DNA of 64,000 nt, from the IMG/VR virus record IMGVR_UViG_3300050343_000214, positions 32,001 to 96,000 of that record. One strand, written 5' to 3'. Position numbers and translations under genes: made by a program. The notes beneath the pieces were generated by a model that worked only from the letters and a program-made list of their open reading frames with translations, was not told the origin of the DNA and ran no database searches. The DNA comes from a virus. Each line of letters opens with the position of its first letter. Positions within the stretch are counted from its first letter, which is position 1. Below, piece after piece: positions 1 to 64,000 of the stretch.

Positions 1-46
1 CGGAGATCTACGACTTACCTTAAAACTACTCAAAATCGTTAAAAAT

Positions 47-56
47 GTGTAATTAA
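47..56 (+). promoter_or_regulatory. Putative phage promoter motif GTGTAATTAA
   Basis: Intergenic, upstream of the 135 gene. Variant of the GTGTA(T)AAT motif also at 2829, 21110, 31092 and 56054(-). Confidence 0.4.
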
Positions 57-134
57 TTCTAGAGACTAACATGTTCTGGAGTGTTACACGCTCAATCCAC
101 TACCAGATAATAATATTCATAGGGAGAAACCAAT

Positions 135-1078
135 ATGGCTAATAAACGTATTTTTTATGCACTCCAGCAAGTGTTAATAGGCGACGGAGAAGCGAGTGAA
201 ACATCAACCGCGCTAAAGGGTGTACAAAGTGTTGGAATGAGTTCCACCACAAATGTAGAGAGTTTTAGTGCTTTTGGTGGCATTGAGGCAACTACAATTC
301 TGCAAGACCTAGATCTTGAAATAACTATTGAGAATGGTCTTGGTAGCGATTGGACGAACGCCCTTGGAGCTGCTGGCTATAGCTCGTTCAATAGTGCGTT
401 TTTTGACACGAAAAGAACGATTACTTTAGAATATCTTACAGATAGTGGCACTCCGAACGTGACTAAATTAATCACACTGGAAGCTATTTTGACTTCATAC
501 AGTGTTCAGATGGGTCTTGATGGTGCAGCTACAGAATCTATTACTTTCCAAAATGCTGGCACCTCAGTCTTTACTGCGGGTTCTGACGGTACAGCGCTGT
601 CAGCTCAAGCAGGCAAAAAACTTTGTAATGTAATTACTCGACCTAACTTTACTAATTTTACATATACTGAATACCCGGAATGCTGTGAAGCAACCACTAT
701 AGCCCCCGCAACCTATAGTAAAGTTCAATCATTTAGTGCCAATTTTGATGTTGGAAGCGAAAAGGTTTCAGCTCTTGGGCAGTCTATGCCATTTGGCAAA
801 TTTGCTACCTTCCCAGCTGAAATTTCGGCAGAAGTAGAATACCATCTTGATCCAACTGGTGGTATTGGTACTCTTAATTCTGGAACTATTACTGGCAATA
901 GCTTGGATGATGTGTGTTATGATGTAGAAATTGCTATGCCCGGAAATACATATGCGATGGATAAAATGAGGCTCGCAGGAGCTAGCCGAAGCGGAGGTGA
1001 TGTTGGCGGTGGAAACGTAACTATTTCAGAAAGTTATACTGGATTTAATACGTTTAGCCTACTACTGGCCCTTCTTAA
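135..1078 (+). CDS. Probable major tail tube protein
   Basis: GGAG RBS; beta-rich ~315-aa protein a few genes upstream of the tape measure. The track ORF to 1208 looks like a fusion with the next gene; restoring one base near 1058 gives ...FSPTTGPS* with TAA at 1076-1078. Confidence 0.55.
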
Positions 1079-1085
1079 TTGTTAC

Positions 1086-2028
1086 ATGAGGACTGACGAA
1101 GAGGAACACTGGATACAGTCTATTAGAGTTGGCACTATTAAGTATGAAAATATTTCAATAGTGCCAGCTACTATAGATCAAGTGTCTGACGCTGCTAGAT
1201 GTCTATAGGACGATCTTACGATGAGTCTCTAAATAGTGGTATCATGACAGACTCAGGATTGGAACATTGGATGATAGAAAATTCTTTATTGCCGAAGTCG
1301 TTTCATACTTCTAGAGAAAATTTGAATAAATCTATAGACAATCTTAAAAAAAGATCTGTTCCGAAATAGGGCTAGCAAGTCTGCAATTAAAAAGATCCGT
1401 AGCGCAGATCTTACAAACACTCGCGCCAAGTTAAAAGATTGTACTTGCTCAAAAAATCCCACATGTCTCACAATACTTGTGAATTTATAGCGCAAACTGA
1501 AAAGTTAGTCTCTTTACTACACGCTACAACTTTCAAAAATAACAAGCCTTATAAGCCAGCTAATATGAATGTTGTCATTGAAATATGGCAAGAGTCTTTA
1601 GCTTCTGAATCCTTTGATCAGATCTTTAGTCTAGATGTGATACTTGGAGGTCTATTTGGGCTAACAAGGGGTTTGGCTTTAAGTTGTTTAAAAAAAATAA
1701 CCCAGATGATGATTTAACTATCAATCAAAGAAACTTAATCACATGGTCCAGAGTGTACGACAATATACAAGAGTCAATAGATTGTCCATCAGACGCAGCG
1801 ATTGCTAACCATGACATGCTTGATGGGTGGTTTTTAATTCAACAAGCTAAGAGGGAAAAAGAAAGAATGGAGCAAGAGGCAGAAGCACTAACTGGCGATA
1901 GAGGTAAGTCTGCAAATGCTCAACATGTCTTCGTTCCTCAAGGCGCAGACAACATAGATATTAATATTTTAAATGAGGGCCACGAATCTAAGCCTATACA
2001 TAATATAATTGAGGATCATAATAAATGA
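1086..2028 (+). CDS. Hypothetical protein in tail-assembly-chaperone position (several indels)
   Basis: MRTDEEEHWIQ... can be followed across frames into the 1439 and 1684 ORF fragments. Confidence 0.45.
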
Positions 2029-2357
2029 ACAACTATAATAATAGAAGGAAAGAAATTCACGATGCTAAGTCTTATAATAGGCTTTCTAGAAACATGAAAA
2101 AGAAAATACAAACAACTATGATTGGCGCTCTTAGCAGTGTTGAGAAACATTTTAGTTTTTTATGGGAGCAAGAAAATATTTCTGAAGAACAAAGGGAGTC
2201 ATTAAAAAGAATATATGACGATCTTAGATCTGAAATATTAGACAAAGGAAATCATCAACTAAGGAATGTTGATGCTGAATTGTCAGACTATACTATATCA
2301 TTACACCCAAACGTTCATGATATAAATTTTTTCGTAGATAACAAAGAGGAGAATTAA
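2025..2357 (+). CDS. Hypothetical helical protein
   Basis: Intact ORF with ATGA-type overlap with the previous gene and GAGG RBS. Confidence 0.6.
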   Translation: MNNYNNRRKEIHDAKSYNRLSRNMKKKIQTTMIGALSSVEKHFSFLWEQENISEEQRESLKRIYDDLRSEILDKGNHQLRNVDAELSDYTISLHPNVHDINFFVDNKEEN

Positions 2358-61835: not shown

Positions 61836-62102
61836 TTATTCCTCCGTATTTAACAACGGAAATACCTCGTCAATTTTTTCGACGGCAGATTTAAGCTCTA
61901 ACGATTCACATTGGTTTCTGAGCGTGTGCCAAGTTTCAACTACTTCAATGAATGAAGCGGCCTGCGCTTGAACTTCAGGGCTAGGTTTTCTTTTGAATAA
62001 ATTTTTTACGTAAGTCACGTAGGGCTTAACATCAAAATTGACAAACAATAAACTTGCGGCAACCGCAATGGCTATTAGCCTTAATAAAACTTCTGTATCC
62101 AT
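61836..62102 (-). CDS. Small membrane protein
   Basis: One N-terminal TM helix. Confidence 0.6.
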   Translation of the reverse strand: MDTEVLLRLIAIAVAASLLFVNFDVKPYVTYVKNLFKRKPSPEVQAQAASFIEVVETWHTLRNQCESLELKSAVEKIDEVFPLLNTEE

Positions 62103-62461
62103 TATTCCTCCAAAATTTTTAATGGTTGAACGACAATAGTATCATCCTTTTTCCCGTGATATGGACACACAGTTTTGTGACCGTCTCCGTGGACTATAAC
62201 TCCAGAGCCTTTGCAAATGCATTTATCTGGATCTGGATGTGGACCGACTATATCTGGAGTTGGTTTTACTCCAAATACTTCTTTCTCTGACTCGTCAAAG
62301 GACTTCTTGACTTCTTGCTTCCATAACTCTACTTCTGAAGGTTCGCTGCTAAAACTAAGAGGTGTTCCTCCATCAATTATAGACGGAGGGTTATTTACAA
62401 AGTGCAATGTTCCTATGACAGAAATTAAACTAATAAAGCATAATTCCAAAAATCTTTTCAT
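62102..62461 (-). CDS. Membrane-anchored protein with Cys/His metal-binding motif
   Basis: N-terminal TM; CICKGSG...GDG...CPYH. Confidence 0.6.
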   Translation of the reverse strand: MKRFLELCFISLISVIGTLHFVNNPPSIIDGGTPLSFSSEPSEVELWKQEVKKSFDESEKEVFGVKPTPDIVGPHPDPDKCICKGSGVIVHGDGHKTVCPYHGKKDDTIVVQPLKILEE

Positions 62462-62688
62462 GGACTGCCTCCATCCACAGCGTTGTAATAAGAAATATCA
62501 TCGAATTTTGCAGTGTAGAGAGTTTCTAGTTCTGTTGGTGTTAAACTCGTATCAAACTCAACAAAACTAGGATCGGTGCTGGTATCAATTGTAAACGAAG
62601 TTCCAGTAGGAAAACAGCTTACTGTGACAGTTCCGTTCCTAAGAGTTGTGGTTGAAGCGTGTGCGTTTTGAGCGACATCAGTTGGCAT
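62458..62688 (-). CDS. Small Thr-rich hypothetical protein
   Basis: AGGAG RBS; ATGA overlap with the next gene. Confidence 0.5.
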   Translation of the reverse strand: MPTDVAQNAHASTTTLRNGTVTVSCFPTGTSFTIDTSTDPSFVEFDTSLTPTELETLYTAKFDDISYYNAVDGGSP

Positions 62689-62719
62689 ATTAATCTCCTT
62701 TTATAAAAATAATGTTGTA

Positions 62720-63583
62720 TTAGGGCGCAGATGTAGTGCTAATCATTGGGTAAGTAGTAAAGGTCACACTTTCAAAGTCTTGACTTGGCGTTGCGGGTGG
62801 GGTAAAATTCAAGCCTCTTTTGTATACAGCCAAATTTCTAATGTGAAAATGATCTATCTGACCACTAAAAGCATTGTTTCCATCTTTGTCAGAACCAATT
62901 GTTAGTTTTCCACCGTTTAAAAATTCTATTACTTGATCAGAATTTTCTGACTGTGTGGTCGTTGTCTTTTTACGCCATCAATGTACATATAAAAATTTAC
63001 TGTTAGTATACCCTGAGCCACTCTGTCTGACGATAGCTACATGATGCCATCCGCTAAGGCCCACAGCATCGCTGGTTAGACTGCGCGTACTTACAGTGCC
63101 GAAATCTTTATGTAAATAGGTATAGCTAAATTTAATTTTGTTATCAATCATCTCTACTTTATAATTTCCATAGGAATTCTCATGACTTTGTTCTAACAAA
63201 ACAGCGCTGCTAACATTTGCAGTAAAGTAAACAAAGAATTCCAGTGTAAAATTGTTTGTACCAATAGCTGTTAGAGCATTGTCGGAATTAGTATCGTCGT
63301 TATAGATTCTTCCCCCTGAAGTATTTTTTAATGAAGCTAGACCAAACTTCTTATTAGTTCCATCTAGATTAATATTAGAAGATGTAAAATCCAGATCAGC
63401 GCTGGAAACATCCTCGAAATTATTATTAAAGGGTAAAAGTACGAGGCTTGCATAACCACTCGCTGGAAGGTCTTGAGGGTTATATATTAGCTCGTTTTCA
63501 GAATAAACTTGCGCCACTGGGGTGTCAGGCTCTGCGCCAGAGTACAGCGTTACGGTTTGTTCGCCAAGATATATATTAGCCAT
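62720..63583 (-). CDS. LamG/concanavalin-like tail-fibre-type protein (indel at ~62980)
   Basis: NFTLEFFV, WHHVAIVR, LY.DG, FSGQID; continues to ...ISTTSAP*. Confidence 0.8.
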
Positions 63584-63601
63584 ATTATTTTGCTCTTTTA
63601 A

Positions 63602-64000
63602 TTAGGTTACTACGTATATTGTGTTGGGATCTTTGTCTGCTAAAGCTGTATATTCTGAGCTGCTTAATGCGAGAATATTGTTTGCGGTTACTTTATATGC
63701 TAACCATTTATCTAGAGTTGCATCGTAAGTAAACGACGCTGCTTGACCGTACTTTAAAAGTATGTCAGATCTTGGGATACAATAAATTCTGTTAGCTGCA
63801 ACAGCTGTTGTACTTTGACTTTTGATTGTGATGTTTCTGTCTCCAGAAGTTACATCATTTATCAAAACAAATTGCTTAATTGCGTAGTCATCATCTACCC
63901 CGTGTATGGTAAAGTTTGCGTTTAATGTAGATACTTTAATTAGGTCTAGATTAGCAGTTGGCAGAAATGCGGCATCTGACGTAGACACACCGTCTCCCAA
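63602..64000 (-). CDS. C-terminal part of a tail-fibre-like protein (runs off the window)
   Basis: Ends with SSSEYTALADKDPNTIYVV, a motif typical of phage fibre proteins. Confidence 0.6.
   Translation of the reverse strand: MGDGVSTSDAAFLPTANLDLIKVSTLNANFTIHGVDDDYAIKQFVLINDVTSGDRNITIKSQSTTAVAANRIYCIPRSDILLKYGQAASFTYDATLDKWLAYKVTANNILALSSSEYTALADKDPNTIYVVT

Follow-up and report, generated by a model that had tools for sequence, protein, structure and literature searches.

Does a marine phage encode a counterpart of the enzymes with which O-glycosylation of the mucin type begins, and would such an enzyme act on the fibre and tail proteins of the phage itself? This question is raised by a stretch of 64,000 nucleotides (hereafter the window), corresponding to bases 32001-96000 of the 105.8-kb uncultured marine phage record IMGVR_UViG_3300050343_000214 (CheckV completeness 68%). 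An initial annotation of the window had proposed that a glycosyltransferase with motifs resembling those of the polypeptide GalNAc-transferases (ppGalNAc-T, family GT27), encoded at 47540-48433, acts with other glycosyltransferases and methyltransferases on TT-x-AP/PP motifs of structural proteins. Our analysis points to a GT27-like enzyme that goes with poly-Thr linkers in related phages and whose bacterial relatives stand beside Thr-rich genes. It therefore probably sugar-coats fibre and tail proteins: we favour, with some reserve, a soluble GT27-like enzyme that glycosylates threonine residues in the poly-Thr or TT-x-(A/P)-P linkers and tails of these proteins.

Fold, active site and distribution of the GT27-like enzyme

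The gene at 47540-48433 (minus strand) encodes a 297-amino-acid glycosyltransferase of the GT-A type, ppGalNAc-T-like and devoid of a lectin domain, which we propose to be an initiating polypeptide Thr O-glycosyltransferase. The protein matches the Pfam family PF00535 (Glycos_transf_2) with 42 bits, for a gathering cut-off of 23.3; this model also spans the catalytic domains of GT27 enzymes. An AlphaFold2 (AF2) model built with an alignment of 32 homologues has a pLDDT of 94, with residues 5-11 forming the first strand of the fold. When this model was compared with the PDB using Foldseek, the first ~50 matches were all GT27 enzymes (E 3e-15 to 7e-12). VIA, an aligner independent of Foldseek, gave Z scores of 23.0 for GalNAc-T1 and 22.4 for TgGalNAc-T3 over 264-272 aligned residues, and at most 18.3 for every GT2, GT7 or other GT-A enzyme (16.6 for TarP), i.e., about 4.5 Z units beneath GT27.

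Seven residues are invariant across 32 members of the family: D96, H98, H219, W143, F221, E194 and E195. The family profile could be aligned to human GalNAc-T10 over residues 37-221 (E 4e-4), placing DCH of the phage enzyme on DSH, FGGEE on WGGEQ and the distal histidine on the distal histidine of GalNAc-T10. At the level of sequence and model, the D-x-H plus distal His pattern of Mn2+ ligands typical of GT27 is thus present as D96, H98 and H219, and FGGEEGY takes the place of the WGGEN of GT27. In the predicted peptide groove, W143 aligns with the Trp of the FDW motif of GalNAc-T10 and F221 with its aromatic residue at H+2, positions that, by register, we take to be those of Trp282 and Phe361 of GalNAc-T2. 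The two GalNAc-T2 residues recognise Pro-x-Pro peptides and are essential for activity (PMC4432651). Pro141 occupies the position of Phe280 of GalNAc-T2. The common sequon of GT27 enzymes is T/S-P-x-P. The assignment of ppGalNAc-T-like motifs to this gene was therefore borne out by the PF00535 match, the predicted fold and the profile alignment, and, as judged from sequence and model, the enzyme is GT27-like in both fold and active site.

Its identity to GT27 enzymes is only 14-17%, a single-sequence phmmer search against the PDB returned no match at E<=1, and both the ricin-type lectin domain and the N-terminal type II membrane anchor are absent, the catalytic domain spanning all 297 residues. 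For these reasons we place the enzyme, on present sequence and model comparisons, in a family of its own rather than within GT27 in the strict sense, though it would work like GT27. The lack of a membrane anchor and of a lectin domain also leads us to expect action in the cytoplasm. PHROGs and NCBIfam contain no family matching the enzyme.

This family is large, with 1044 representatives at 50% identity (E<1e-30), and is present in 467 IMG/VR contigs and 415 GTDB species genomes. Among the 50,697 records of cultured phages, no match was obtained by tblastn with the enzyme or by megablast with positions 36000-50000 of the window; for DnaE, the same collection contains only distant relatives (at most 32% identity). 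The viral models of UniProt include only one close match to the enzyme. In the literature searched, no paper ties GT27 to phages and none describes the pairing of a GT27-like enzyme with Thr-rich acceptors.

Threonine-rich linkers and their association with the enzyme

The candidate acceptor motif, TT-x-[AP]-P, occurs six times in the proteins of the window, against 0.33 expected from within-protein shuffles, and 25 times in 13 proteins genome-wide (0.76 expected). The majority of the genome-wide sites lie in poly-Thr/Pro/Ala linkers of fibre proteins encoded upstream of the window. Codon usage differs between sites, all of which are in frame whichever strand encodes them; we therefore rejected a DNA-level repeat and consider the motif to be a protein-level one. 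Motifs had been announced in at least four structural proteins of the window; the enrichment holds, and the sites divide into four in three structural proteins and two in replication proteins.

The first structural site, TTIAP (693..707, plus strand), is at residue 187 of the major tail protein (135-1208, plus strand; phrog_1407), within a loop that varies; homologues share only 24-30% identity with this protein, and in them the loop is not conserved or cannot be aligned. The open reading frame (ORF) also extends about 50 residues beyond the common end of all homologues (…FNTFSLL). Two sites, at residues 362 and 372, lie in the linker TTAPPTPPVSTTAAP (residues 362-376; 9054..9098, plus strand) between domains of the tail protein 7971-9857. 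The fourth is a TTSAP (23658..23672, plus strand) in the extreme C-terminal tail (…TTPTATTTSAPT) of the structural protein 22863-23678, for which no relatives were found in viral contigs. The motif marks linkers and tails of fibre and tail proteins, so that a glycan coat over the tail, as proposed earlier, does not follow from it.

The two sites in replication proteins are TTTLPP (49816..49833, minus strand), a six-residue insertion in the deoxynucleoside monophosphate (dNMP) kinase (49465-50064) that is missing in 76 of 77 orthologues, and TTTMPP (52983..53000, minus strand), in a variable acidic linker of the replication-module protein 52680-53336. These insertions could be extra sequons, a binding motif or the product of chance. 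In the latter protein, the inserted residues WTTTM are missing in 50 of 52 orthologues; a subset of its orthologues has [WS]TTMPPH in this linker, at a distance of about 4.2 kb from the gene of the enzyme.

The association between enzyme and linkers was assessed in 30 genomes with a common capsid protein (65-88% identity), 14 of them enzyme-positive and 16 enzyme-negative. Sites were counted with a DNA proxy for TTTx[AP]P that had been validated against protein counts in ten genomes and then applied to 28 further records. Linkers coding for at least two copies of TTTx[AP]P were present in 12 of the 14 genomes with the enzyme and in none of the 16 without it (Fisher p = 1e-6, with no phylogenetic correction). 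The individual counts are 22, 17, 25, 3, 6, 7, 10, 4, 0, 1, 10, 5, 5 and 6 in the enzyme-positive genomes, and zero in fourteen and one in two of the enzyme-negative genomes, so that the motif is far from equally common in relatives that lack the enzyme. Site density is about 60 per Mb in enzyme-positive records (a rate taken over all 22 enzyme-bearing records scored) versus 0.9 per Mb in enzyme-negative ones. In the capsid tree, enzyme status changes three to five times; the motif changes with it in each informative pair, and in none does it move the opposite way. The enzyme was thus gained or lost at least three times in this group. Moreover, enzyme-bearing, jumbo-sized records without the capsid gene are still motif-rich, with 22, 13 and 22 sites in G047, G048 and G052, respectively. 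The pairing of a GT27-like enzyme with TT-x-AP/PP acceptors, as first suggested from the window, is therefore computationally well supported.

The association is specific for this gene. Much of the replication module is common to the compared genomes, whether enzyme-positive or enzyme-negative, and in a gene-by-gene comparison the GT27-like gene was the sole gene of the record to be present in five of five enzyme-positive and absent from four of four enzyme-negative genomes. The possibility that any GT2 or GT4 gene tracks the linkers was rejected, as GT4 genes and GT2-type genes other than this one (the latter in 13 of 16 enzyme-negative relatives) are present in linker-free relatives. Threonine richness as such does not track the enzyme either: the enzyme-negative genomes G008 and G011 are rich in (TP)n-type Thr linkers, with more T-P-x-P sequons. 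Only the Thr-run or TT-x-[AP]-P style of linker goes with the enzyme. For instance, the capsid proteins of G045 (enzyme-positive) and G008 (enzyme-negative) are 88% identical, and the linker that comes after a homologous fibre N-terminal domain is of the poly-Thr/x-A-P type in the former and of the (T/S)P(T/S)x type in the latter (regions compared: G045:C1:49625-59559, loci L205-L206, and G008:C1:70869-77295).

In one phage clade the enzyme gene and Thr-rich structural genes are direct neighbours. In G045, a 201-kb genome with terminal repeats, the enzyme gene is part of the structural operon, where it comes 7 kb after the gene for the capsid protein and overlaps the stop codon of a gene encoding a 552-aa protein with a run of 14 Thr. 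The arrangement is alike throughout the clade formed by G044, G045 and L067, in which the enzyme gene overlaps the stop codon of a structural protein gene with a Thr run of 13-15 residues and lies amid genes for proteins of 12-16% Thr.

A similar adjacency is observed in bacteria. Bacterial homologues are mostly about 600 residues long, with an additional N-terminal P-loop domain, and cultured carriers of such a fused gene include Labrys, Bradyrhizobium diazoefficiens SZCCT0138 and Desulforhopalus singaporensis; in L103:6981-8840 and L105:7014-8843, for instance, the N-terminal domain of about 320 residues has a weak P-loop/HPr-kinase-like match. The neighbours of homologues of this type include NTP_transf_5, sulfotransferase and ABC transporter genes, a combination reminiscent of peptide-tailoring clusters. 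Of the 80 bacterial loci (L084-L163), 26 contain small ORFs, between one and five per locus, that share a conserved W..PVV..PAHA leader (e.g., L092:6517-6906, L131:5730-6140 and L144:4614-4973), preceded in some cases by a twin-arginine (Tat) signal; Pfam contains no family matching them. They occur as tandems of two to five copies in some loci, such as L091 and L125, and about half of them have the same orientation as the enzyme gene and lie just upstream of it. Thr-rich tails (Thr fraction 0.2-0.7) are present in about half, and some of these tails contain TTAAP or TTVAP repeats. In one metagenome-assembled genome, a standalone homologue comes after an ORF of 1785 aa in which there are 102 TT-x-[AP]-P sites. 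The twin-arginine signals suggest that these bacterial proteins would be modified in the cytoplasm and then exported by the Tat pathway.

From these data we infer the following mechanism. The phage enzyme would act in the cytoplasm during infection, with a host UDP-sugar as donor and Mn2+, and would place a sugar on threonines of the poly-Thr or TT-x-(A/P)-P linkers and tails before or during assembly. The linkers would thereby become mucin-like, that is, extended, hydrated and protease-resistant.

Genomic context, alternative targets and the other glycosyltransferase genes

Several observations weigh against an action of the enzyme on fibre and tail proteins. First, besides the low identity to GT27 and the empty phmmer search mentioned above, all support is computational. 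Second, in 70 of 81 related loci, including the window, the enzyme gene is located in the replication module, beside genes for a PD-(D/E)XK nuclease, the dNMP kinase and a primase, and in these loci the fibre genes are more than 20 kb away. Third, there are only three independent contrasts on supported branches of the capsid tree, so that a phylogenetically corrected sign test cannot reach significance. Fourth, G107 has the enzyme and lacks the motif (this genome is 71% complete), and canonical T-P-x-P sequons are numerous in the (TP)n-type linkers of G008 and G011, both enzyme-negative. Finally, linkers of the same style are also found where the enzyme is missing, in 35 of 36 other viral records; six of these reach a completeness of 90% or more and are devoid of any GT2-type gene. 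The enzyme thus predicts the linkers, and the linkers do not require the enzyme.

Some of these observations would fit an enzyme acting on another acceptor, its link with Thr runs then reflecting common ancestry or ecology. Candidate acceptors would be a host protein, a non-structural phage protein (e.g., 52680-53336, with TTMPPH in many orthologues), a glycan or lipid of the host envelope, or a small molecule. The maintenance of the enzyme gene in the replication module and the existence of same-style linkers in enzyme-free records are in line with such a target, as are the TTTxPP insertions in two replication proteins, the recurrence of [WS]TTMPPH at a short distance from the enzyme gene, and the presence of a PAP2 phosphatase gene near the enzyme gene in 28 of the 81 related loci. 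This phosphatase is, however, missing from four of the five other enzyme-positive genomes examined gene by gene. Furthermore, the association recurs over at least three gains or losses and in the unrelated jumbo-sized records, and the enzyme gene abuts poly-Thr genes in a second phage clade and adjoins Thr-rich ORFs in bacteria. We therefore regard a different acceptor as rather unlikely, and retain the fibre and tail linkers as the probable targets of the GT27-like enzyme.

The location of the gene also raises the possibility that the glycosyltransferases of the window hypermodify phage DNA at hydroxymethyl- or hydroxy-pyrimidines, as in the T-even and the TET- or ThyA-linked phage systems. 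In the window, tail and fibre genes occupy the plus strand (135-31888) and the replication module the minus strand (32320-64000), where glycosyltransferase genes are interleaved with replication genes and the dNMP kinase gene; in addition, phages are known to encode DNA glycosyltransferases of both the GT-A and the GT-B type (bioRxiv 10.1101/2023.12.21.572611). The known GT-A enzymes of this kind carry R..DDD..EDY/F motifs, resemble TarP/JGT and cluster with ThyS or 5mYOX genes (Pyle et al., bioRxiv 10.1101/2023.12.21.572611). The enzyme of the window has instead the DxH...H pattern and is GT27-like, with a Z score of 23 for GT27 and 16.6 for TarP. The precursor enzymes expected if DNA bases were glycosylated were not found: no ThyA or ThyX homologue is present in the 68%-complete record, ThyA is absent from all 39 enzyme-bearing records (five of them complete), and neither Tet_JBP nor a C5-methyltransferase was found in the record, Tet_JBP being also absent from all 39, although the control for this family was silent above the cut-off. 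DNA modification by the glycosyltransferases of the window is therefore very unlikely in our estimation, with a caveat that comes from the silent Tet_JBP control and the incompleteness of the record and weighs most for the GT4 and GT-B genes.

These other genes are all on the minus strand. Three GT4 genes had been annotated, and all three match PF00534: a 560-aa protein (38371..40053; also phrog_2170), a gene in two pieces (37258..38374), with a 90-aa N-terminal piece at 38102-38374 overlapping a 312-aa piece at 37258-38196, and a 328-aa protein (36275..37261; E 7.7e-18). From its sequence, the middle gene looks broken, so that the count of three GT4 genes stands with this reservation. The GtfA model TIGR02918 is among the weak matches of the GT4 proteins. 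A further GT-B-like protein may be encoded at 34254..35135, with a weak match to GT1-type GT-B enzymes (Foldseek E ~1e-4; AF2 model of pLDDT 73; Atlas leads); an Atlas lead towards the T4 beta-glucosyltransferase was not borne out by this model. The GT34 assignment was weakly borne out: the GT-A protein with a DTD motif at 41936..42619 lies right at the Pfam cut-off (23.0 bits for 23) and has an Atlas score of 0.98 to viral PF05637 clusters. The FkbM-family methyltransferase (43292..43981) is confirmed by PF05050 and TIGR01444. The additional sugar-O-methyltransferases correspond only to short ORFs with sub-threshold similarities, one of 137 aa (35865..36278; Methyltransf_31, E 0.09) and one of 93 aa (45632..45913; Methyltransf_24, E 0.024), and no family match supports a nucleotidyltransferase at 35132-35934.

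The initial annotation had combined these genes into a single pathway, in which the GT27-like enzyme would initiate on Thr, the GT4s and the GT34-like protein would extend the glycan, and FkbM or other methyltransferases would cap it, on the same virion proteins. All genes of this putative pathway are on one strand within 14 kb, and glycans have been reported at the C-termini of capsid and tail-tube subunits of mycobacteriophages (Freeman et al. 2023, as summarised in PMC12619734). However, G001, G008 and G011 have GT4 homologues and are devoid of the GT27-like gene and of the linkers; of the 81 related loci, only 4 contain FkbM and only 6 the GT34-like gene, although the 10-kb flanks used here undercount them; one GT4 looks broken; and the extra methyltransferases and the nucleotidyltransferase are not substantiated. 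We thus consider the complete pathway improbable, more so than a different acceptor for the GT27-like enzyme. The GT4s, the GT34-like gene and FkbM may extend or cap the glycan placed by the GT27-like enzyme on linker threonines, or may serve another target.

The window has a GC content of about 38% and contains no tRNA genes. The plus-strand block includes the tape-measure protein gene (3248-7774, plus strand), and the replication module also carries a gene for a RecA-like protein. Several replication genes are split. DnaE is encoded by two minus-strand genes, one for the PHP and palm domains (43968-45539) and one for the fingers (40393-41952), separated by three intact genes encoding the FkbM methyltransferase, an RNase_T exonuclease and the GT34-like protein; all related genomes in the gene-by-gene comparison, with the exception of G007, have homologues of both DnaE halves. 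In DnaB, the N-terminal part is encoded by one ORF (52166-52699) and the C-terminal part by another (51214-51963); in relatives, DnaB is a single gene of about 485-515 codons. The region 57585-60709 contains a fragment of PhoH (149 aa) and several short ORFs resembling pieces of class II ribonucleotide reductase; the corresponding genes look interrupted or frameshifted. The PAP2 phosphatase of the window (46127-46825) is soluble-looking, with intact motifs of the KxxxxxxRP, PSGH and SRxxxxxHxxxD type.

Implications and comparison with known systems

GT27 enzymes, which start O-glycosylation of the mucin type, are regarded as an invention of eukaryotes. The distribution described here raises a broader scenario, in which a large family of cytoplasmic, lectin-less GT27-like enzymes would perform mucin-type O-glycosylation of threonine in prokaryotes and viruses, co-evolving with poly-Thr linkers in phages and with Tat-signal Thr-rich proteins in bacteria, and would be the prokaryotic sister, possibly the source, of the enzymes initiating mucin glycosylation in animals. 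We put this forward tentatively, as a scenario whose chances fall a little short of even. If the enzyme does glycosylate poly-Thr linkers, fibres with a mucin-like sugar coat would exist in many marine and freshwater phages, with a bearing on adsorption, stickiness to particles or mucus, resistance to proteases and antigenicity. An unrecognised class of Tat-signal glycoproteins would be indicated by the bacterial homologues, and the small, soluble and easily expressed enzyme would provide a model and tool for peptide O-glycosylation as well as a lead, open to testing, on where the animal enzymes come from.

Among known systems, the closest to the enzyme itself are the eukaryotic GT27 enzymes (human GalNAc-T2 and T10, mouse T1 and Toxoplasma T3), which are its best structural matches with two aligners. 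They share with it the triad formed by DxH and the distal His, the GGE motif and, by alignment, the Trp and Phe of the peptide groove, and their acceptors are Thr-rich, Pro or Ala standing two to three positions downstream, as predicted here. They differ from it by their sequence, to which the phage and bacterial enzymes are 14-17% identical, by WGGEN in place of FGGEE, by the presence of a ricin-type lectin domain and a signal anchor, and by a Golgi location, in contrast to the predicted cytoplasmic one of the phage enzyme.

GtfA and GtfB glycosylate serine-rich-repeat adhesins on oxygen in the cytoplasm before export by an accessory Sec system, and are GT-B (GT4) enzymes. The logic proposed here is alike, with a cytoplasmic enzyme that modifies an extended Ser/Thr-rich stretch in a surface protein ahead of its export or assembly, and the bacterial homologues are encoded beside Tat-signal proteins; the fold is different, being GT-A and GT27-like in our case.

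The DNA-hypermodifying GT-A enzymes of phages (bioRxiv 10.1101/2023.12.21.572611) are also phage-encoded GT-A enzymes whose genes are often near replication genes. Neither their R..DDD..EDY/F motif, nor their likeness to TarP/JGT, nor their ThyS/5mYOX neighbours were found in the case of the window.

A parallel in terms of function is the glycosylation of mycobacteriophage virions, for which, according to the summary of Freeman et al. 2023 in PMC12619734, phage glycosyltransferases are proposed or shown to act on exposed tails of the phage's own structural proteins. As in a system of this type, a phage glycosyltransferase co-occurs here with acceptor-like linkers and tails on structural proteins (12 of 14 versus 0 of 16 genomes). 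In the mycobacteriophages, that summary places the glycans at the C-terminal ends of the subunits of capsid and tail tube, whereas the candidate acceptors are here poly-Thr linkers of fibre and tail proteins, and the enzyme is a GT27-like one, encoded by a marine phage known from its sequence alone.

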